From a virus (Duplodnaviria > Heunggongvirae > Uroviricota > Caudoviricetes), in the IMG/VR virus record IMGVR_UViG_2737471826_000010, positions 1-35,432 of that record: a DNA stretch of 35,432 bases; one strand, written 5' to 3'. A model generated the notes under the pieces. That model was not told the DNA's origin. It made no database searches and saw only the letters and a list, made by a program, of their open reading frames with translations. Numbering within the stretch: the first letter of the stretch is position 1; every line of letters starts with the position of its first letter. The position numbers and the translations under genes were made by a program. Positions 4,742 to 31,849 of this stretch are shown in pieces.

Positions 4742-4756
4742 TTACCTTAGAGGTAA
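4742..4756. promoter_or_regulatory. operator site TTACC-TTAGA-GGTAA
   Basis: Perfect palindrome copy upstream of a candidate promoter (-35 TTGATT, -10 TTTAAT) for the 4822 gene. Confidence 0.55.
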
Positions 4757-4803
4757 TAAAATATTCTAAAATCTATTGATTTCGTGTCTTATGTGGTTTT
4801 TAA

Positions 4804-4818
4804 TTACCTAAGGGGTAA
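4804..4818. promoter_or_regulatory. operator site TTACC-TAAGG-GGTAA
   Basis: Perfect palindrome copy 4 bp upstream of ATG 4822, overlapping its RBS and predicted +1. Confidence 0.55.
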
Positions 4819-7196: not shown

Positions 7197-7237
7197 GAGT
7201 AGATTATGCATGATGAATTTGATGGGTTTTGAATACT

Positions 7238-7263
7238 GCCGCCAACTATGGCGGCTTTATTTT
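7238..7263 (+). terminator. rho-independent terminator between early genes and terS
   Basis: Stem GCCGCC/GGCGGC with 6-nt loop, then TTTATTTT. Confidence 0.6.
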
Positions 7264-7274
7264 GCATGGTATTA

Positions 7275-7289
7275 TTACCACAACGGTAA
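7275..7289. promoter_or_regulatory. operator site TTACC-ACAAC-GGTAA upstream of terS
   Basis: Perfect palindrome copy; a degenerate copy TTACC-ACGGT-GGTTA at 7293..7307 abuts the terS start. Confidence 0.55.
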
Positions 7290-7306
7290 CAATTACCACG
7301 GTGGTT

Positions 7307-7903
7307 ATGATGCCTGCTGAACCTAAAACCTATAAACGCAAATCAACGCAATTTAAGCCGCTCACAGCAATGCAGGAGGCTTATTGCCAGTCATACATCA
7401 AAACGCCTGAAAACCAGACTCAGGCTGCGATTAACGCAGGATTCTCCCCAAATACAGCGGCAGTTAAAGCCAGCGTCATGATGCGCGATGAACGCATTCA
7501 AAAACGGATTGCCGAGTTGATGGAGGAGCGCAACAAACGAATGCGCGTCAGTGCTGATTACGTTCTTATGCGCCTGGTGGAGATCGACCAGATGGACGTG
7601 ATTGATATCCTCAACGACGATGGGAGCCTTAAGCCAATCCGCGAGTGGCCGAAAATCTGGCGCACTACGCTTAGTGGCTTTGATCTGTCATCGACCATCA
7701 TGAACATGAACGAGGATTCGATAGAGACAATCCTCAAAAAAATTAAATGGCCTGACAAGGTGAAGAACCTCGAACTGATTGGTAAGCACGTCGACGTCAA
7801 CGCATTCAAAGAACGCCTGGATGTTAATGTGAATGTGACAATTGCTGATCGCATAGCGGCAGCCAGGAAGCGACTCAAAGAACGTCAGGATGGTAATCAG
7901 TGA
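7307..7903 (+). CDS. terS: terminase small subunit
   Basis: AMQEAYCQSYIKTPENQTQAAINAGFSPNTAAVKAS resembles small-terminase family; start set to ATG 7307 because the track start at 7229 would translate through terminator and operator. Confidence 0.7.
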   Translation: MMPAEPKTYKRKSTQFKPLTAMQEAYCQSYIKTPENQTQAAINAGFSPNTAAVKASVMMRDERIQKRIAELMEERNKRMRVSADYVLMRLVEIDQMDVIDILNDDGSLKPIREWPKIWRTTLSGFDLSSTIMNMNEDSIETILKKIKWPDKVKNLELIGKHVDVNAFKERLDVNVNVTIADRIAAARKRLKERQDGNQ

Positions 7904-9375
7904 CAGATACAGCGTTATCTCCTGAAGAGCAGTTGATCGAGGATATTGCAGGGTTCACTCACGATCCGCTTGGCTATGCCCTCTATGCGTTCCCGTGGGG
8001 GGAAGAGGGGACTGAACTGGCACATGCTACCGGCCCACGTCAGTGGCAGGCTGATGCGTTCCGAGAGATACGTGATCACCTGCAGAATCCAGAGACGCGC
8101 TATCAGCCGCTTATGCTGGCACGCGCTTCGGGTCACGGTATTGGTAAATCCGCATTCATCTCAATGCTGATCAACTGGGGCATGTCCACTTGCGAGGATT
8201 GTAAGGTCGTGGTGACCGCCAACACCGACAACCAGCTACGAACGAAGACCTGGCCGGAAATTATCAAGTGGTCGAACCTTGCTATCACGAAAGACTGGTT
8301 TACCTGTACCGCTACCGCGATGTACAGCAATGACCCTGGGCACGACAAGCGGTGGCGAGCTGACGCAATCCCCTGGTCTGAGCACAACACTGAGGCATTC
8401 GCCGGACTACACAACGAGCGCAAACGCATCATCGTGGTATTCGACGAAGCATCCAACATTGCCGATCTGGTGTGGGAGGTAGCAGAGGGTGCGCTGACGG
8501 ACGAAGACACTGAGATTATCTGGGTGGCATTCGGAAACCCTACACGTAACACCGGGCGTTTCCGCGAATGTTTCCGCAAATATAAACACCGCTGGAAAAC
8601 TGCGCAGATTGACAGCCGGACGGTGGAAGGCACTAACAAACAGCAGTTGCAGAAATGGGTTGATGACTACGGGGAAGACAGCGACTTCGTTAAAATCCGT
8701 GTGCGCGGCATATTCCCTGATGCATCTGAATTGCAGTTTATCCCTACCGGTCTTACTGATGAGGCAATGAAACGGGTGGTAACCGCTGCGCAGGTGGCGC
8801 ATGCTCCGGTGATAATCGGTGTTGACCCGGCATACTCAGGCGTTGATGACGCTGTGATATACCTGCGGCAGGGGTTGCACAGTAAGGTGCTATGGACTGG
8901 CAACAAGACAACCGACGATCTGATTATGGCGAAGCGTATCGCTGACTTTGAAGACCAGTATCAGGCTGACGCGGTGTTCATCGACTTCGGTTACGGAACC
9001 GGTTTGAAGTCAATCGGTGATGGCTGGGGACGTACATGGCAACTTGTTCCGTTCGGCGGTGCGTCCACTGACCCGCAGATGCTTAACAAGCGTGGGGAGA
9101 TGTTCAACTCATGTAAGACATGGCTGAGGCTGGGCGGCATGCTGGATGACCAGGAAACAGCGGACGACCTGTCTGCGGCAGAGTACAAAGTTCGAGTGGA
9201 CGGTAAAATCGTTATCGAACCGAAGGAAGATATCAAGGAGCGGCTTGGGCGTTCTCCTGGTAAAGGCGATGCGCTACTGCTGACGTTTGCGTTCCCTGTG
9301 TCGAAGCGTCTGCGAATTCCCGGGCAGCAGAACCAGCAAGGCAAGGCCATCACAGATTACGATCCATATGCTTAA
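7900..9375 (+). CDS. terL: terminase large subunit
   Basis: 491 aa; P-loop ASGHGIGKS, Walker B-like IVVFDEA, nuclease-type VIIGVDPAYSGVDDAV; GTG start overlapping terS stop. Confidence 0.8.
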   Translation: MTDTALSPEEQLIEDIAGFTHDPLGYALYAFPWGEEGTELAHATGPRQWQADAFREIRDHLQNPETRYQPLMLARASGHGIGKSAFISMLINWGMSTCEDCKVVVTANTDNQLRTKTWPEIIKWSNLAITKDWFTCTATAMYSNDPGHDKRWRADAIPWSEHNTEAFAGLHNERKRIIVVFDEASNIADLVWEVAEGALTDEDTEIIWVAFGNPTRNTGRFRECFRKYKHRWKTAQIDSRTVEGTNKQQLQKWVDDYGEDSDFVKIRVRGIFPDASELQFIPTGLTDEAMKRVVTAAQVAHAPVIIGVDPAYSGVDDAVIYLRQGLHSKVLWTGNKTTDDLIMAKRIADFEDQYQADAVFIDFGYGTGLKSIGDGWGRTWQLVPFGGASTDPQMLNKRGEMFNSCKTWLRLGGMLDDQETADDLSAAEYKVRVDGKIVIEPKEDIKERLGRSPGKGDALLLTFAFPVSKRLRIPGQQNQQGKAITDYDPYA

Positions 9376-9425
9376 TCCGCTGGTGGGGATAATGTCGTTG
9401 ATATCCTCTGATGAGGATAAAACAA

Positions 9426-9446
9426 AGCCAGCTCATCGGCTGGCTG
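9426..9446 (-). terminator. terminator hairpin after moron gene
   Basis: Stem AGCCAGC/GCTGGCT; on the minus strand followed by TTGTTTT; palindrome copy 2 lies between it and the gene stop. Confidence 0.5.
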
Positions 9447-9449
9447 TTT

Positions 9450-9461
9450 GTGACATGTCAC
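9450..9461. repeat. 12-bp perfect palindrome GTGACATGTCAC (copy 2)
   Basis: Exact copy between stop of 9466..9840 and its terminator. Confidence 0.8.
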
Positions 9462-9465
9462 GGTG

Positions 9466-9840
9466 TTATTGCTCGCTTAGCTTCTGCTTCAGCAAGTAAC
9501 CTTCGAGCATCCAGATTTTGTTTACAGCATTCTGCCGGGCAATCTTCCGACCAATTTCTGCATCAAAGTTTTCCGGGCTTGCACAGGCACTCTCTCCGGT
9601 GACGGTGAAGCCATTCTTCAGCACCAGTACGCAGAAAGTGAGAAGGTGCAGAGCATCAGGGGTGGCTTCGACATAAGGCTCCGGATTATAAATAAGGTCA
9701 TCTTCTTTAGCCTGGTGATCACCCTGCGCAGCAGTGAAAAAATGCTCACTGCAAATGAGGCCTTCAATTTTCTCAGGTGTTACACGCGTTGCCGTTTTGC
9801 CTTTCTCAACGATTTCTTTTTCGATTTGCTGGTCGTTCAT
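9466..9840 (-). CDS. hypothetical moron protein (124 aa), co-oriented with tRNA-Arg
   Basis: ATG at 9840 with AAGGTGA RBS; inserted opposite to flanking terL and portal genes. Confidence 0.5.
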   Translation of the reverse strand: MNDQQIEKEIVEKGKTATRVTPEKIEGLICSEHFFTAAQGDHQAKEDDLIYNPEPYVEATPDALHLLTFCVLVLKNGFTVTGESACASPENFDAEIGRKIARQNAVNKIWMLEGYLLKQKLSEQ

Positions 9841-9851
9841 AATCTCACCTT

Positions 9852-9875
9852 AAAAAAATGCCCGGCGAACCGGGC
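9852..9875 (-). terminator. terminator/attenuator between tRNA-Arg and the moron gene
   Basis: Stem GCCCGG/CCGGGC, loop CGAA, minus-strand T7 tract ending 11 nt before the ORF start codon. Confidence 0.5.
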
Positions 9876-10038
9876 GAACTGGAAGCAATGAGTTATGCCT
9901 TCCGTGGCTGTACGGGTTTACAGCATGAAGTCATCGCAATGGCGTCCTGCTGTAAAAAGGGCGGTGATAGTCCTTCAAGTGAAACCATCACCGCCAAGCA
10001 CCTGGAACTTCTGGTATCACGGTCCTTAGGCGTGATTC

Positions 10039-10115
10039 TGGCGTGGCATGCAGGATTCGAACCTGCGACCAACCGCTTAGAAGGCGGTTGCTCTGTCCAA
10101 CTGAGCTAATGCCAC
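10039..10115 (-). tRNA. tRNA-Arg (anticodon UCU), argU-like
   Basis: 77 nt; acceptor GTGGCAT/ATGCCAC, D-arm GCTC...GAGC, anticodon stem ACCGC/GCGGT with loop CTTCTAA, T-arm GCAGG-TTCGAAT-CCTGC, encoded CCA; close to E. coli argU with compensatory stem changes. Confidence 0.9.
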
Positions 10116-10437
10116 AACGCTGAGAGCACTTAGCCTGTTAAGGCGCCACACTTTGTCGCGGCTCCATAAATGCTCTCATCGTTGTACCCTCGTCTCTTCC
10201 GAGGCGTCACACCGAATCGCCGGGATGGTGAATCCCCGTGCGCGGAATAAAACCGCTCGACTTGCACATTCCGGCTACCTGGTTCGTTTGCCCGAGCAAG
10301 GGAGGGTGCCCCTTAAACGTATCCAGACCGCTATCGTCGCATGTGCCATACGCCGTACTGCTCAAAATAAAAGCTCACTCCACCTGTTCAATTTAACGAC
10401 AGGCCAGTCAGGTTAGTAACCGGAATGAACTCTTTAG

Positions 10438-10452
10438 TTACCTGAAAGGTAA
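10438..10452. promoter_or_regulatory. operator site TTACC-TGAAA-GGTAA upstream of morphogenesis genes
   Basis: Perfect palindrome copy about 90 bp upstream of gene 10543. Confidence 0.55.
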
Positions 10453-10542
10453 TAATTCGCGCGTTAAATGTCAACTATCTACGATAAATAAATCATATAT
10501 GGTTAAATTGGTAATAATTTAATTGCGTACGGAGTCATTGAT

Positions 10543-10749
10543 ATGTGCATGGGTAGCTCACCATCAGTGCCTGCAACACCAGAAGTTCAGGCAGCACCAC
10601 AGGAGCAGGATGCCGCCGTTGTTGATGCCCGCGACGAAGAAACTCGTCGCCGTCGCGCTGCTGCTGGTCGTAGTTCTACGCTGCTTACCGGTTCTCAGGG
10701 CGACACATCAACCGCTAATACCAGCGGTAAAACGCTGCTTGGTCAGTAA
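10543..10749 (+). CDS. hypothetical small protein (68 aa), first gene of head block
   Basis: ATG with GGAG RBS; low-complexity Ala/Arg/Thr-rich product. Confidence 0.4.
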   Translation: MCMGSSPSVPATPEVQAAPQEQDAAVVDARDEETRRRRAAAGRSSTLLTGSQGDTSTANTSGKTLLGQ

Positions 10750-10763
10750 CCGGAGTCATTGAA

Positions 10764-12443
10764 ATGGCGGAAACAACTAAAGAGCGATTGAACAAACAGT
10801 TCGCACAACTTGAAAGCGAGCGTCAATCGTTCGAGCCGCACTGGCGCGAGTTGAGTGATTACATCAACCCGCGTGGTTCCCGCTTTCTGACTTCTGAGGT
10901 CAACCGTAACGATCGACGCAATACACGTATTATTGATTCGACCGGGACTATGGCGGCGCGCACTCTCGCCAGCGGCATGATGTCAGGCATCACAAGCCCC
11001 GCGCGTCCGTGGTTTCGCCTGGCTACGCCAGATCCTGAAATGATGGATTATGGCCCTGTTAAGTTGTGGCTTGAGGCGGTGCAGAACCGCATGAACGATA
11101 TGTTCAATAAGTCGAATCTCTACCAGTCTCTTCCGCAGTTATACGGAAGCCTCGGCACATACAGCACTGGTGCAATGGCGGTGCTGGAGGATGACGAGGA
11201 CATCATTCGCACAATGCCATTCCCGATAGGCAGTTACTACCTGGCTAACTCACCTCGTGGCAGTGTGGACACCTGTTTTCGCAAGTTCTCTATGACTGTT
11301 CGTCAGCTTGTTCAGGAGTTCGGGCTAAATAACGTCAGCGAATCCGTAAAAAGCATGTGGGAAAGCGGCACCTACGAGAAGTGGATTGAAGTGATGCATT
11401 CGGTTTACCCGAACATTGACCGCGATACATCGAAGCTGGATAGCAAGAACAAGCCATTCAAATCGGTTTATTACGAGGTTGGTGGCGATAACGACAAGTT
11501 GTTGCGTGAGTCCGGATTCGATGAGTTTCCAATTATGGCTCCGCGCTGGGAAGTTAACGGCGAAGATGTTTATGGATCATCATGCCCGGGTATGCTGGCG
11601 CTTGGACCTGTTAAGGCATTGCAGCTTCTCCAGAAGCGCAAGTCGCAGTTGATTGATAAAGCCACCAATCCGCCGATGGTTGCTCCGACTTCCCTCAAGA
11701 ATCAGCGCGCCTCCCTTCTTCCTGGCGACATCACGTATATCGATCAGATTACTGGTCAGGATGGTTTCAGGCCTGCTTATCTGGTTAACCCCAGTACAGC
11801 AGATCTGGTAGCAGACATTCAGGACACCCGCCAAATCATTAACAGCGCCTACTTTGTCGATCTGTTCATGATGTTGCAGAACATCAATACCCGCTCGATG
11901 CCTGTTGAAGCGGTGATCGAAATGAAAGAAGAAAAACTTCTGATGTTGGGGCCGGTTCTGGAGCGTCTGAACGACGAATGTCTTAATCCTCTCATTGACC
12001 GCGCTTTCTCGATGATGGTGCGTAAAAACATGCTGCCGCCACCGCCTGACGCGATGGAAGGTATGCCCCTGAAGGTCGAATACATTTCTGTCATGGCTCA
12101 GGCGCAGAAGTCTATCGGCCTGTCCAGTCTGGCGTCTACGGTCAACTTCATTGGTCAACTTGCGCAAGCGAAACCAGAAGCTCTCGACAAACTCAATGTT
12201 GATCAGGCGATCGATGCATTCGCTGATATGTCCGGAGTGTCTCCAACCGTCATTGTTCCGCAGGAACAGGTTGAGCAGGCTCGCCAGCAACGGGCACAGC
12301 AGCAACAGCAGCAACAAATGATGGCGATGGGAATGGCGGCGGCACAGGGCGCCAAGACGCTAAGCGAAGCTAAAACTTCGGATCCGAGTGTTTTGTCAGC
12401 TATGGCGAATGCAGTTAGTGGTCAGGGTGGGCAATCACAATGA
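10764..12443 (+). CDS. portal (head-to-tail connector) protein, T7 gp8-like
   Basis: 559 aa; size, position after terL and Gln-rich C-terminal tail (QARQQRAQQQQQQQMMAMGMAAAQGAK) resemble podovirus connector proteins. Confidence 0.7.
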   Translation: MAETTKERLNKQFAQLESERQSFEPHWRELSDYINPRGSRFLTSEVNRNDRRNTRIIDSTGTMAARTLASGMMSGITSPARPWFRLATPDPEMMDYGPVKLWLEAVQNRMNDMFNKSNLYQSLPQLYGSLGTYSTGAMAVLEDDEDIIRTMPFPIGSYYLANSPRGSVDTCFRKFSMTVRQLVQEFGLNNVSESVKSMWESGTYEKWIEVMHSVYPNIDRDTSKLDSKNKPFKSVYYEVGGDNDKLLRESGFDEFPIMAPRWEVNGEDVYGSSCPGMLALGPVKALQLLQKRKSQLIDKATNPPMVAPTSLKNQRASLLPGDITYIDQITGQDGFRPAYLVNPSTADLVADIQDTRQIINSAYFVDLFMMLQNINTRSMPVEAVIEMKEEKLLMLGPVLERLNDECLNPLIDRAFSMMVRKNMLPPPPDAMEGMPLKVEYISVMAQAQKSIGLSSLASTVNFIGQLAQAKPEALDKLNVDQAIDAFADMSGVSPTVIVPQEQVEQARQQRAQQQQQQQMMAMGMAAAQGAKTLSEAKTSDPSVLSAMANAVSGQGGQSQ

Positions 12444-28093: not shown

Positions 28094-28108
28094 TTACCTT
28101 TAAGGTAA
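28094..28108. promoter_or_regulatory. operator site TTACC-TTTAA-GGTAA upstream of toxin-antitoxin-like operon
   Basis: Perfect palindrome copy 43 bp upstream of start codon at 28051. Confidence 0.55.
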
Positions 28109-28180: not shown

Positions 28181-28891
28181 TCAGAAGAACCCTGCCTTGT
28201 CGTTGATGTATTCCGCGTGTGTCTGGATATCACGCAGGCATTTGCTCACACCGACGATGTAGCAGAACATGGTGGTCAGTTCCGCCGCCGCGCCCGATAC
28301 GTCGTGCCCGTCGTCCTGTAACTGGTTCAGCAGATTCATCAGCAGTGAGTTCTCCGTCAGGCCGAGAACACCAGACGGCGAGTGAATCAGGCTGCGGTAG
28401 CCGGGCTTCAGTGGGGCGCTGTAGGTTTTGTTCTCTATCTTCATTGCCTGCATCACTGCTGATGCTGTGGCGTTGGCTACCTGGTCGGCAACCATCTTTA
28501 TGCGTTCTTCCTGCGGGAGCGAGTTTTTAATGTAACTTCCGGTGCGGCGGATCTGAGGAAGTACTTCGCCTGTAACCCATTTGCGAAAGCGGTAGGGGAT
28601 AGTGCCTGGTGTCACCGCATCGCGGCAGCGGAGGATCAGTGTGTAGAGGCCTGACTCGGAGATGATGTTGATCTCTTTTACTCGGCTGTCAAAAATTGCA
28701 CGATGTTCATGCCCTATGTTGAACATAGACCTTTCATCATCATCCAGTTTTTCAAGTGCTTGGGTGACGTTTTGGATACGCAGCGCACTACAAACGTCTT
28801 GGGCTACAAACCATGGTTGGCCATCGATAATGATGGAACGGATAGGGTTAACAGATTCAAATTTGAAGATGGCAGTTTGAGCATTAGCCAT
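28181..28891 (-). CDS. antirepressor with Bro-N domain
   Basis: N-terminal WFVAQDVCSAL...SGLYTLILRCRD...FRKWVTGEVLPQIRRTG is a Bro-N-type signature; start set to ATG 28891 with GGAGA RBS; C-terminal domain paralogous to gene 29207..29464. Confidence 0.65.
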   Translation of the reverse strand: MANAQTAIFKFESVNPIRSIIIDGQPWFVAQDVCSALRIQNVTQALEKLDDDERSMFNIGHEHRAIFDSRVKEINIISESGLYTLILRCRDAVTPGTIPYRFRKWVTGEVLPQIRRTGSYIKNSLPQEERIKMVADQVANATASAVMQAMKIENKTYSAPLKPGYRSLIHSPSGVLGLTENSLLMNLLNQLQDDGHDVSGAAAELTTMFCYIVGVSKCLRDIQTHAEYINDKAGFF

Positions 28892-29048
28892 GGTGGTTAT
28901 CTCCACTTAGTGATTTTAATCACCACCGCAACGCCAATTACTGGTGGTGAACTGGACAAGGTTGGCGTACCGGCCTAAGTGGTACCGGCGTCCTTTCGGA
29001 CCCCTGCCCAGCCCACCATAATTCGGATATAGCTGTGCTTAACGCATA

Positions 29049-29071
29049 AAAAAACCACGTCTGGCGTGGTA
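29049..29071 (-). terminator. rho-independent terminator between the two antirepressor genes
   Basis: Stem ACCACG/CGTGGT, loop TCTGG, minus-strand T7 tract. Confidence 0.6.
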
Positions 29072-29160
29072 TGCGCCACTTAGTAACCCGGGACGCCAAT
29101 CCCGGCACTGGATTTTGCCAGTGCCTGATTACTATGGCACAAGAGGAGTGCGATGTAAAT

Positions 29161-29175
29161 TTACCGCAAAGGTAA
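29161..29175. promoter_or_regulatory. operator site TTACC-GCAAA-GGTAA
   Basis: Perfect palindrome copy between the small and large antirepressor genes. Confidence 0.55.
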
Positions 29176-29540: not shown

Positions 29541-29555
29541 TTACCCGAAAGGTAA
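29541..29555. promoter_or_regulatory. operator site TTACC-CGAAA-GGTAA
   Basis: Perfect palindrome copy in the divergent region between small antirepressor gene and tailspike gene. Confidence 0.55.
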
Positions 29556-29659: not shown

Positions 29660-31849
29660 ATGACGGTCTCAACCGAAGTTGACCACAACGAATACACCGG
29701 TAACGGCGTTACGACATCATTTCCGTATACCTTCCGTATTTTCAAAAAAACCGACCTGGTTGTTCAGGTGTCTGACCTGAACGGGAACGTAACAGAATTG
29801 GTTCTGGATACCGGTTATAAGGTAACTGGAGCGGGCACTTATAGTGGCGGTGAAGTGGTTCTCCCGTCGCCGCTTGCTGCTGGCTGGCGAATTACGATAG
29901 AGCGTGTGCTTGATGTGGTGCAGGAGACTGATCTTCGCAATCAGGGAAAATTTTTCCCCGAAGTTCATGAAGATGCATTTGACTACCTGACGATGCTGAT
30001 CCAGCGATGTTTTGGGTGGTTCAGACGTGCATTGATGAAACCATCTTTGCTTGCAAAATATTACGATGCAAAGCAAAACAAAATTTCTAACCTTGCAGAT
30101 CCATCATTTGAGCAGGACGCTGTAAATAATCGCTCAATGCGTAATTATGTCGATGCTGCAATCGCCGGGGTTGTTGGTGGTTTTGGTTGGTTTATACCGT
30201 CAGGAAGCGAGGCAAGACAACGAACATTTCAAAGCAAAATGAGGGATATAATTTCTCCTTGTGATTACGAAGATAATATTTTTATGATTAAGGAGTTGAT
30301 ATCCAAAGGCAAAAATGCCGCTGTTTTTAACTCATATTATACTTTTGTTATTACTGTTGGCGAATGGGGTGATTACCCTACACTCAAAGATGCAATCATT
30401 GCAGCCCAGTCAATGAGACCTATGTGGGATGGTGGTAATGCTTTCTGCGAAATAAGAATTAAGACCGGGCATATTATCAACTATCAAATTGAATTCAGTT
30501 CAGGTGTTGATTTGTCTTGGATTAAAATAACATCAGAAGACTCAGTGGTTTTCTCTGACACTCGTTTGTTTACTAAAATCGTTAGAACGTATTACGAATA
30601 CAAGTATTTATTTTACATTTGCGATGCAGCAAAAAGTCCTGTATTTGCTATTCAGATCGAAGAAAATAGAGATGATAGCGATGTTTGTGCATTTATTGTA
30701 ACTCAAAAAGCTGAACTTAATTTCTATCCGTATTCAGGTGCTCGAAAGTTCTACGTTGGAATTCATGGTAGTTTTGGTGCAAAAATTAGTGCATATCATA
30801 CCGGATGTGCTCCTGATGAGGAAAGTGTTGCTGCATATATGCCAGAAGGGTATTACGTATGTGATTTTTCTTATAGCAGATACTCTTCCCTGCAACTGGT
30901 AAATAATGTCAAGGCATCAATGCCTGTAAGCAAGTTTGAACGGTGCACAGAGAGTACGGTTGCGTCAGTTAATTGTATTTATAATGTTAAAGCAGATTTT
31001 CAGGGGTCAAGTGCAAGCTATTGTTATATAGGATGGAATGTAAGAGATGGTTCAAATGTTAATATACGCGACCATAAAACTATACATTGCTCATATCGTG
31101 GATTAACCTGCATTCATACAGCATATGTTGATGCAAGACGACATGACGTTGAAGAAAGTGATGCAGAAACAAGTGGTAAAGTCCTTGAACCAAATATTGA
31201 AAAAGGTTTTTATGGATGTGCACTTGGTGTGCGTATTGATGGTGCGGGTTGCGTTGATGTTGCTGGTAATGATATGCGCAATTGTGGAACAGCCGTTAAT
31301 GCAGACACTGGTGCTGTTATTTCAGGAAAGGCTGTAGATATCTCAGGGGCTGAGCTGGGATTTGATTGCCATGCAGGAGCATCTGTTAATTTTCCAAGGC
31401 TATGGGGTACAGATATAAAAAAATTAATGCACCTCCAAGATGGTGTAAGGTTTAACTCTAATATTTGTCATGTATTTGGTGCAAATCCCACAAAAGATAT
31501 TAGATGGATTGATGTAGAGAGATCTGAAGCTTCTTTTATGAATGCAACGCTGGATGCAGATTCAGGATTTATTGCCGACTGTGGTAGTAGGATAACCATT
31601 GAAGGAAGTAAAGTTAAAAACCAAACAATAAGAAGTTTTTTTGGATCATATGTGGCTATAAATAATACTGTTGCTGACAGAACTTATTCAGATATAGCCG
31701 ATGTTCCGCAGTTGACTATTAGTGGAGGATCTTTTATTTCTGCTACAGGATATTCTAATTCTGACTCCAGCCCTCTGAGGTTGAGCACAACACGAAATAC
31801 ACTTGGCGTTGGAGGAGCCATATTTTCAACCAATGGGGAAGTTTCATGA
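29660..31849 (+). CDS. tailspike / tail fiber with T7-type N-terminal adaptor and divergent receptor-binding domain
   Basis: N-terminus EYTGNGVTTSFPYTFRIF...GWRITIERV resembles podovirus tail-fiber head-binding domain; C-terminal ~550 aa Cys/Gly/Asn-rich; DNA becomes AT-rich after ~30200. Confidence 0.7.
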   Translation: MTVSTEVDHNEYTGNGVTTSFPYTFRIFKKTDLVVQVSDLNGNVTELVLDTGYKVTGAGTYSGGEVVLPSPLAAGWRITIERVLDVVQETDLRNQGKFFPEVHEDAFDYLTMLIQRCFGWFRRALMKPSLLAKYYDAKQNKISNLADPSFEQDAVNNRSMRNYVDAAIAGVVGGFGWFIPSGSEARQRTFQSKMRDIISPCDYEDNIFMIKELISKGKNAAVFNSYYTFVITVGEWGDYPTLKDAIIAAQSMRPMWDGGNAFCEIRIKTGHIINYQIEFSSGVDLSWIKITSEDSVVFSDTRLFTKIVRTYYEYKYLFYICDAAKSPVFAIQIEENRDDSDVCAFIVTQKAELNFYPYSGARKFYVGIHGSFGAKISAYHTGCAPDEESVAAYMPEGYYVCDFSYSRYSSLQLVNNVKASMPVSKFERCTESTVASVNCIYNVKADFQGSSASYCYIGWNVRDGSNVNIRDHKTIHCSYRGLTCIHTAYVDARRHDVEESDAETSGKVLEPNIEKGFYGCALGVRIDGAGCVDVAGNDMRNCGTAVNADTGAVISGKAVDISGAELGFDCHAGASVNFPRLWGTDIKKLMHLQDGVRFNSNICHVFGANPTKDIRWIDVERSEASFMNATLDADSGFIADCGSRITIEGSKVKNQTIRSFFGSYVAINNTVADRTYSDIADVPQLTISGGSFISATGYSNSDSSPLRLSTTRNTLGVGGAIFSTNGEVS

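Follow-up and report, generated by a model that had tools for sequence, protein, structure and literature searches.

Phages carry large structured RNAs, among them GOLLD and ROOL, which were found near tRNA genes. Phages also encode small proteins that bind nucleotide signals, and PF13876 has been defined as the Acb4 family (anti-CBASS 4; CBASS, cyclic oligonucleotide-based antiphage signalling system) of tetrameric cyclic-dinucleotide sponges (Chang et al., bioRxiv 2024, PMC11722364). All eight purified Acb4 homologues bound 3'3'-cGAMP, and those of phages of Gram-negative hosts also bound 3'3'-cAA (PMC11722364). Here, we analyzed a stretch of viral DNA of 35,432 nucleotides (nt) (IMG/VR record IMGVR_UViG_2737471826_000010, referred to below as the window), focusing on the region around positions 9,426 to 10,452, where a tRNA-Arg(UCU) gene and an open reading frame (ORF) of 124 amino acids lie on the minus strand between terL and the portal gene. 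Positions 9376-10542 matched phiV10, E. coli O157 typing phages 9 and 10, ZX5, TL-2011b, and other Uetakevirus (epsilon15-like) temperate podophages at approximately 97% identity in a megablast search. The window is thus a phiV10/epsilon15-like temperate phage.

We consider it fairly probable that this region is a single minus-strand early transcription unit placed antisense between terL and the portal operon. In the order of transcription, it would consist of a sigma-70-type promoter with an operator, a leader of about 325 nt, tRNA-Arg(UCU), two terminators (t1 and t2), an Acb4 gene, and a bidirectional terminator. The repressor would hold the unit off in a lysogen, and the unit would be transcribed early upon infection or induction. 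The tRNA would then be excised and would decode AGA codons in the AGA-rich genes of the phage. Polymerases that pass t1 and t2 would transcribe the Acb4 gene, the product of which would soak up CBASS cyclic-dinucleotide signals, and the position just past t2 would serve as a recombination slot, in which related phages place other sponge or accessory genes. This reading builds on the observed anatomy of the locus, the family assignments, the conserved structure of the RNA, the diversity of the cargo, and the codon bias. Both the tRNA and the ORF are of kinds already known, the Acb4 family having been characterized in 2024. The novelty lies in the architecture of the junction and in a widespread structured RNA that heads early operons in three types of temperate phages.

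A conserved structured RNA upstream of the tRNA gene

A sequence-only reading of the window had treated the approximately 320 bp upstream of the tRNA gene as non-coding. Instead, this DNA specifies an RNA of about 170 nt that is conserved, forms a pseudoknot, and shows covariation. The leader, which lies on the minus strand, starts with a variable 5' part (10357..10437), which is an insertion relative to SPN9TCW (alignment A2) and is absent from the Salmonella relatives. The conserved structured core (10186..10356; alignment sets A4 and A5) contains five helices and a pseudoknot. P1 (10355..10335) is followed by the P2 domain (P2/P2a, 10329..10273), an invariant segment GGAAUGUGCAAG (10272..10261), P4 (10236..10222), and the P5 hairpin (10204..10188). 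The CACC loop of P4 pairs with GGUG at 10213..10210, forming the pseudoknot.

An alignment of five relatives consisted of invariant blocks with variable inserts between them, and RNAalifold predicted three hairpins, in which 13 of the 17 pairs showed compensatory changes. An explicit model comprising P1, P2/P2a, P4, P5, and the pseudoknot was then written by hand and tested against slid and shuffled controls. In A4, which holds 34 non-redundant copies, 90.6% of the cells were paired, compared with 32-44% in the slid controls. Sixteen pairs were changed on both sides, against 3-8 in the slid and 9.4 ± 1.2 in the shuffled controls (0/500), and the covariation score was 0.229, against at most 0.087.

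Because A4 was gathered through the sequence of P5, we gathered a second set, A5, through block 2. Twenty-three real copies were found in contigs from one genome per species, and A5 consists of the window and 21 distinct copies. The real copies came from Kosakonia, Citrobacter, Klebsiella, Kluyvera, Enterobacter, Phytobacter, Erwinia, Buttiauxella, and other genera. Four genome matches (L139, L143, L149, and L159, from Dysgonamonadaceae, Oscillospiraceae, Bacteroides, and Azonexus) were discarded as chance hits, as the other blocks were missing. In A5, 95.8% of the cells were paired (31-43% in the slid controls), 12 pairs were changed on both sides (2-4 in the slid controls), and the covariation score was 0.277 (at most 0.061 in the controls). 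None of the 500 shuffles exceeded the real value in any of the five measures. Two pairs of P5 alternated between UA (15 copies) and CG (6 copies) and between CG (14 copies) and GC (6 copies), and a pseudoknot pair was CG in 18 copies, AU in 4, and broken in none. A second pseudoknot, between GCACAU of the P1 loop and AUGUGC of block 2, was considered and set aside as speculation; the two segments hardly vary, and in the few copies that differ, the changes are not compensatory.

Rfam 15 contained no match at the leader in the window region, either at the gathering scores or at E-values up to 10, and P1, mEp460, and four lambdoid loci likewise gave none at the element at E-values up to 0.5. GOLLD and ROOL are presumably among the 4,227 Rfam families, none of which matched the leader. 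The prophage small RNAs (sRNAs) AgvB, AsxR, Esr41, and STnc100 were rejected as candidates, since their Rfam families had no match at the element, and the Pas sRNAs are located near Q and the late genes, not at the leader site. Matches to the STnc100 sRNA were observed elsewhere in two loci, at 12252-12457 of L041 (56 bits, above the gathering score) and at 1547-1666 of L129 (P1), in the ban operon (33 bits, below the gathering score).

Between the core and the tRNA, the alignment revealed a further putative stem, P6 (10122..10177, minus strand), in which GAGAGCA (10177..10171) faces UGCUCUC (10128..10122), 6 nt ahead of the tRNA. The arms are complementary and conserved, and the enclosed insert differs in length and sequence among the aligned relatives. 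The 3' arm of P6 and some of the other continuations of the core resemble the core of boxA (L054 with TGCTCTTTAACAA). This candidate was dropped because the motif was inconsistent across classes.

Distribution and genomic contexts of the leader

Scanning viral contigs with one block (CTCGGAAGAGACGAG) returned at least 120 loci, and the element was present in 117 of the 120 viral loci listed. Three contexts were found. The element is always located between the portal side and terL in phiV10-like phages. In lambdoid phages and prophages (mEp460, cdtI, and Stx2c types), it lies directly after the CI-like repressor gene, begins a few nt past an operator-overlapped PL-like promoter, and is the first element of an operon that contains RdgC, ParB-like, DUF2303, excisionase, and integrase genes. 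In P1 and P7, it is found within the ban operon, which is under C1 control, with tRNA-Ile on one side and ban on the other. The element thus occupies the very start of lambdoid early operons, the place of the antitermination signals of lambda and HK022, and therefore could bear on the early programme of lambdoid phages that lack N.

At least five different sequences continue the core on its 3' side, among them tRNA-Arg (also in the lambdoid locus L073), a direct Shine-Dalgarno sequence and ATG, and other RNA-like segments. In the lambdoid loci L016, L023, L036, and others (classes B, C, and D), another 300-500 nt of conserved sequence that contain no convincing ORF come after the core (20-500 nt past it), and a recurring frame beginning with VNVLNADRPFSQLKAHS after lambdoid leaders looks spurious. 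Additional non-coding RNA modules may thus be present after lambdoid leader cores.

A BLAST search detected the element in 1,836 of 5,426 complete E. coli genomes, about a third, at 2,467 places, 554 of which were on plasmids. No annotated feature was found under the element in any of the 40 records listed from this search, and a limited search of the literature found no description of it.

Promoter, operator, and flanking genes

The flanking late genes lie on the strand opposite to the tRNA, as had been proposed from the sequence: terS and terL together span 7229-9375 (terL alone 7900-9375), the portal gene spans 10764-12443 (PF12236, E = 1.6e-187), and terL and the portal gene are both on the plus strand. 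The unit of tRNA and ORF is clearly an insertion, antisense between terL and the portal operon.

Upstream of the leader, we found a candidate −35 sequence, TTGACA (10469..10474, minus strand), and a candidate −10 sequence, TACCTT (10451..10446, minus strand). Neither hexamer differs among five E. coli, Salmonella, and Klebsiella relatives; the 17-nt spacer varies, and the relatives keep the same TTGACA-17-TACCyT geometry. The candidate −10 sequence is held within a palindrome, TTACCTGAAAGGTAA (10438..10452), which resembles an operator. TTACC-N5-GGTAA occurs 13 times in the window, compared with 0.49 expected. The sites are located at 1637-1713, 2411-2473, 2796-2810, 4742-4818, 7275-7307, 10438-10452, 28094-28108, 29161-29175, and 29541-29555. 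They cluster around a helix-turn-helix (HTH) repressor gene (1771-2352), and others precede early units, including the C4/isrK antirepressor operon described below. Two copies lie within the start of terS.

The palindrome is probably the operator of the 193-amino-acid HTH repressor (1771-2352). Because the candidate −10 sequence is inside the operator-like palindrome, an early, repressor-controlled unit is probable rather than a constitutive moron. The unit has clear terminators and is inserted between terL and the portal gene, but the earlier term moron, in the sense of an autonomous unit expressed from the prophage, is doubtful. The promoter would be used, and the unit co-transcribed, under the control of this repressor, and early expression combined with repression in the lysogen would be a fitting regime for a counter-defence gene.

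Terminators and the junction with the ORF

The tRNA is directly followed on its 3' side by t1 (9950..9995, minus strand), a 14-bp stem and CUUUUU, which was detected by the terminator scan and is conserved in relatives. Its folding energy is −22.0 kcal/mol, stronger than that of t2. The second terminator, t2 (9852..9875, minus strand), was recognized from the sequence, the scan, and folding. It consists of GCCCGG-UUCG-CCGGGC (9875-9860), an A, and a U7 tract (9858-9852), and abuts the ORF. Its folding energy is −11.2 kcal/mol, its pairing probability in context is approximately 1.0, and it is conserved beside different cargo genes. Exactly 11 nt (AAGGTGAGATT, including the Shine-Dalgarno sequence AAGGUGAG) separate the T-tract of t2 from the ATG at 9840, in agreement with the spacing first reported for this hairpin. 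Read from the sequence, this spacer (AAGGUGAGAUU) occupies 9841..9851 on the minus strand. The cargo gene and terL converge on a common bidirectional terminator (9416..9445; terminator scan), at a position equivalent to that of a rho-independent terminator annotated in phiV10. Neither t1 (9995-9960), nor the bidirectional terminator (9445-9426), nor the conservation and structure of the upstream DNA had been mentioned in the sequence-only reading.

A sigma-70 consensus scan of 9300-10800 called 0 sites, so that the interval from the tRNA to the ORF contains nothing promoter-like. Because the ORF has no recognizable promoter of its own and lies behind two terminators, it must be reached by transcription through the tRNA unit. 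Of the two routes suggested previously, read-through is consistent with this arrangement, but regulated attenuation found no support: competing-hairpin attenuation at t2 was rejected, as t2 pairs with a probability of approximately 1.0 and no alternative fold appeared.

A mini-ORF of 13 codons, MTSCCKPVQPRKA* (9893..9934, minus strand), is present between t1 and t2. Comparison with relatives showed that, in SPN9TCW, the cargo gene is annotated as starting at this same ATG and that, in a Klebsiella phage, the Tad2-like cargo shares its reading frame. The mini-ORF is probably a relic of an older cargo junction.

The ORF belongs to the Acb4 family

The ORF (9466-9840, minus strand) starts with ATG and encodes 124 amino acids. 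It had been described as being of unknown function, and a homology search instead placed it in the anti-CBASS sponge family PF13876/Acb4. The Pfam model PF13876 (N4 gp49/Sf6 gene 66) matched at E = 2.3e-34 and 118.2 bits, against a cut-off of 27, over model positions 1-82 of 82. The sole match in the PDB was 9e4w, Acb4 of SPO1, at E = 0.0039 with a single sequence in phmmer and at E = 2.2e-6 with a profile of eight family members. The identity of the ORF to the phiV10, Sf6, and epsilon15 homologues is 67-77%. Table S3 of the Acb4 study includes the phiV10 orthologue and the epsilon15, Sf6, and N4 homologues (PMC11722364). On this profile and family-table evidence, membership of the ORF in the Acb4 family is established, and the gene (9466..9840) would encode a putative cyclic-dinucleotide sponge.

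The ligand contacts of SPO1 Acb4 are K36, F48, E49, V56, Y57, F62, N63, I66, T70, and K81 (PMC11722364). In a single-sequence alignment, the equivalents of F48, F62, and I66 are conserved in the ORF, and N63 is replaced by D.

A cargo slot behind t2

We catalogued the cargo in 66 phiV10-like loci in which the sequence extends as far as the terL end, using the viral-contig scan, which was not fully de-duplicated, and anchoring the ATG starts on t2. Acb4-type genes occupy the slot in 28 of the 66 loci. A 282-amino-acid protein with membrane and coiled-coil segments (phrog_4780) was found in 12 loci, a 140-amino-acid phrog_4846 protein in five, a Tad2-like protein (PF11195, E = 3e-24) in four, and an Acb2/Tad1 hairpin domain (PF24729, E = 4e-17) in one. 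The Tad2-like cargo is also present in Klebsiella phage ST512-KPC3phi13.3 (E = 4e-26). The remaining cargo comprises several further uncharacterized proteins, and most of the cargo families other than sponges are uncharacterized; PADLOC and PDB searches of these other proteins were uninformative. Of the 49 loci with t2, 40 had the ATG of the cargo 5-16 nt past the T-tract, regardless of which cargo was present.

Since Acb4, Tad2-like, and Acb2/Tad1-like genes occur at one position, with the ATG usually 5-16 nt past the same terminator, this position is a swap-in counter-defence slot. The closeness of terminator and ATG is thus the conserved junction of a slot that favours nucleotide-signal sponges. 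Three known sponge families occupy the slot, and phrog_4780, phrog_4846, phrog_11049, and phrog_18493 are therefore counter-defence candidates. For a search for new counter-defence genes, this slot behind the tRNA module is a compact target.

An 86-amino-acid cargo domain (phrog_11049; cluster C4, L027 and others) also matches phrog_9467, the other half of which is matched by the Acb4 ORF of the window. A motif similar to this domain forms the N-terminal part of the 173-amino-acid Tad2-like protein of Klebsiella. Judging from these matches, fused two-domain sponge-like proteins seem to exist. In phage Huey (L003, 382-1497), the gene directly upstream of the Acb4 homologue ends in a Tad2-like C-terminus (...KFVPWSASQTDVLAEDWQII). 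Both Huey genes are labelled "anti-CRISPR protein", and the two sponge types adjoin there, after the lysis genes.

The tRNA-Arg(UCU) gene and codon usage

A complete argU-like tRNA with compensatory changes in its stems had been proposed, and prediction and alignment supported this in full. ARAGORN detected a single tRNA in the window, tRNA-Arg(tct) (10039..10115, minus strand; anticodon at position 35), and the Rfam tRNA model scored 73.3 bits, against a gathering score of 29. The gene encodes the CCA end and is identical to E. coli K-12 argU at 64 of 77 positions. Of the 13 differences, ten combine into five fully compensated pairs, at acceptor positions 2-72, 4-70, and 6-68 and anticodon-stem positions 30-42 and 31-41. 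The stems are all still paired, and the anticodon loop CUUCUAA and the encoded CCA end are the same as in the host argU. The tRNA is already annotated in typing phages 9 and 10, SPN9TCW, and phiv142-3. The phiV10 reference record (NC_007804, L001) contains no tRNA feature at this place; at 2672-2923, a spurious hypothetical coding sequence on the plus strand, PhiV10p04, lies over tRNA-Arg.

Codon counts confirmed that phage genes are richer in AGA and AGG than the host. AGA was used 1.2 times per 1000 codons in a sample of 42 K-12 genes, and 5.9, 11.6, and 13.2 times in the structural block, early-left, and right-hand genes of the window, respectively, an enrichment of 5-11 times over K-12. 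The corresponding values for AGG were 0.7 in K-12 and 2.3, 6.4, and 6.6 in the window. The AGA excess is located in replication/early and accessory genes, tail and injection proteins, and a 729-amino-acid ORF (29660-31849) with 13 AGA codons. The terS, terL, portal, and head genes contain none. The idea that the tRNA helps late gene translation is thus only partially supported. Codon supply is a sufficient reason for the presence of the tRNA.

Weighing the proposed unit and the role of the leader

Several observations weigh against the proposed early unit. The consensus scan did not call the TTGACA-17-TACCTT promoter, which it missed because TACCTT has too few positions in common with the −10 consensus, and the operator function of the palindrome is deduced from motif enrichment only. 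Because t1 and t2 are strong, little read-through would be expected unless the polymerase is modified, and no N- or Q-like protein is recognizable in the window, which is shorter than the whole genome. Of 26 lambdoid loci, only one had a co-directional intrinsic terminator in the 1.5 kb that follow the leader. As for the product, the SPO1 contacts K36, E49, V56, Y57, and T70 are not conserved in the ORF, the ligand of which may differ from that of SPO1 Acb4. The Acb4 ORF contains zero AGA and zero AGG codons, and the tRNA and the ORF are therefore not functionally tied through codons.

The leader may make the polymerase resistant to terminators or to Rho. As an explanation in its own right, this would make the leader a cis-acting processive antiterminator like HK022 put, non-homologous to it, which enables RNA polymerase to resist t1, t2, and Rho. 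Such an activity would explain the expression of a gene directly behind a strong terminator, and the long untranslated stretches that this transcript carries would otherwise lie open to Rho. Co-directional terminators are present downstream of the leader in 39 of 39 phiV10-like loci, and the pseudoknot and the many invariant unpaired nucleotides suggest that the RNA contacts a specific macromolecule. The element of lambdoid phages lies a few nt past a repressor-controlled PL-like promoter, as putL and nutL do, and this position, together with the lack of a recognizable N or Q protein, makes RNA-mediated antitermination attractive. However, the authentic putL, which we extracted from the HK022 genome using published primers (PMC9378689), has no likeness to the leader in sequence or architecture, and homology to HK022 put was rejected. 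Antitermination is not supported in lambdoid loci, because 25 of the 26 have no intrinsic terminator within 1.5 kb downstream, and the P1 element is located 2.4 kb inside the ban operon, after the tRNA and not at the start. The dissimilarity to putL, the near-absence of lambdoid terminators, and the internal position in P1 therefore leave antitermination as a tentative possibility.

Alternatively, the leader could be a stable, processed early non-coding RNA that acts in trans, as a decoy for a host factor or a defence sensor or as a ligand-sensing RNA, with the tRNA and the cargo sharing its promoter. A modular core with at least five different 3' continuations would fit such an RNA, as would its high prevalence and its position adjoining the counter-defence slot. 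In P1, where the element is located between the tRNA and ban, tRNA processing would release the RNA. However, no terminator or defined 3' end follows P5, no target or ligand can be named, and the link to defence cargo is limited to the phiV10-like group, as lambdoid copies precede RdgC, ParB-like, and DUF2303 genes. We regard a role in trans as rather unlikely.

It is conceivable, and no more than tentatively proposed, that the leader represents a new class of phage regulatory RNA, either a protein-independent element that acts on RNA polymerase or Rho and so protects early transcripts from termination or an early RNA that senses or decoys a host factor, which would be used by P1-like, lambdoid, and phiV10-like phages across Enterobacterales. 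If so, it would be a second, unrelated solution to the problem solved by HK022 put, and in phiV10-like phages it would gate a swappable counter-defence gene directly behind a strong terminator. A gene located 11 nt behind a strong terminator provides a simple read-out of any effect of the leader on polymerase behaviour.

A further explanation dispenses with a common unit and takes the locus as two unrelated autonomous morons, the tRNA with its own promoter and terminator and Acb4 with an unrecognized promoter, the upstream conservation being due to recent ancestry. The Acb4 gene does move alone: Sf6, Huey, IME10, and Shiga toxin (Stx) phages have only the ORF in common with the window (9473-9843), and the sequence that precedes the gene in Sf6 and Huey is a different one, with neither the leader nor an abutting terminator. 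Conversely, SPN1S-type Salmonella phages, Klebsiella phages, and EC.W1-9 match only the tRNA side, from approximately 9845-9852 onward. As judged from these alignment limits, the tRNA and the ORF are separate evolutionary modules, and their boundary is the T-tract of t2. In addition, t1 alone would suffice to end a tRNA transcript. However, two independent morons would leave Acb4 without a promoter-like site, with just 11 nt between t2 and the ATG, and the t2-to-ATG junction is kept across unrelated cargo. The compensatory changes in the leader across genera and unrelated phage types are likewise unexplained by shared ancestry alone. We consider this explanation improbable.

It is very improbable that the tRNA is chiefly a counter-defence device that replaces host tRNA-Arg destroyed by an anticodon nuclease, not one for codon supply, even though it is placed in the counter-defence slot beside sponge genes, its unit looks early, and some phage tRNAs are reported to counter tRNA-cleaving defences, since its anticodon loop is identical to that of the host argU and thus shows no nuclease-evading change, the AGA enrichment alone explains the tRNA, and we know of no defence system that targets tRNA-Arg(UCU).

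Other features of the window

Positions 10500-10542 of the window contain a palindromic sequence, TTAAATTGGTAATAATTTAA, approximately 25 nt ahead of a 68-amino-acid gene (start at 10543) that opens the portal operon. The palindrome is invariant across E. coli, Salmonella, and Klebsiella relatives and is probably a promoter or regulator site that restarts late transcription past the antisense insert.

Rfam detected the C4 antisense RNA and isrK upstream of a Bro-N antirepressor-like gene (28940-29124 and 28181-28903, both minus strand). C4/isrK and the antirepressor-like gene constitute a P1-type immI module within a phiV10-like phage. The same pair of C4 and isrK is present in mEp460.

Comparison with known systems

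The tRNA is comparable with other phage-borne rare-codon tRNAs, such as those of the P1 ban operon and the argU-like tRNAs of typing phages 9 and 10, SPN9TCW, and phiv142-3, in being a complete argU-like tRNA-Arg(UCU) in a phage that overuses AGA. It differs from them in its placement, with a conserved structured leader on one side and a cargo slot on the other.

The ORF has in common with SPO1 Acb4 the ENF(D/N)xEIGR (ENFxxEIGR) core and the equivalents of F48, F62, and I66, whereas its N-terminal part is longer, with a hypervariable middle, and the guanine-specifying residues K36 and E49 are not kept. The slot resembles anti-defence hotspots and islands, in that related phages carry alternative counter-defence genes at a fixed position. 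Here, however, it is defined by an RNA module (leader, tRNA, and terminators) and not by a marker protein gene, and the cargo follows directly behind a terminator.

Similar to HK022 put and lambda nut, the lambdoid element is a conserved structured leader that forms the first nt of a repressor-controlled early-left transcript, and in the window the candidate promoter, directly upstream of the leader, would also be of an early, repressor-controlled type; the P1 copy is not so placed. HK022 put is a sequence of about 70 nt with two stem-loops, whereas the leader comprises about 170 nt with five helices and a pseudoknot, without similarity to putL. The likeness to GOLLD and ROOL is that of a phage-borne, conserved non-coding RNA with a complex fold beside tRNA genes, here in phiV10-like phages and P1. 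Compared with these RNAs, the leader of the window is much smaller, at about 170 nt, and is restricted to Enterobacterales.

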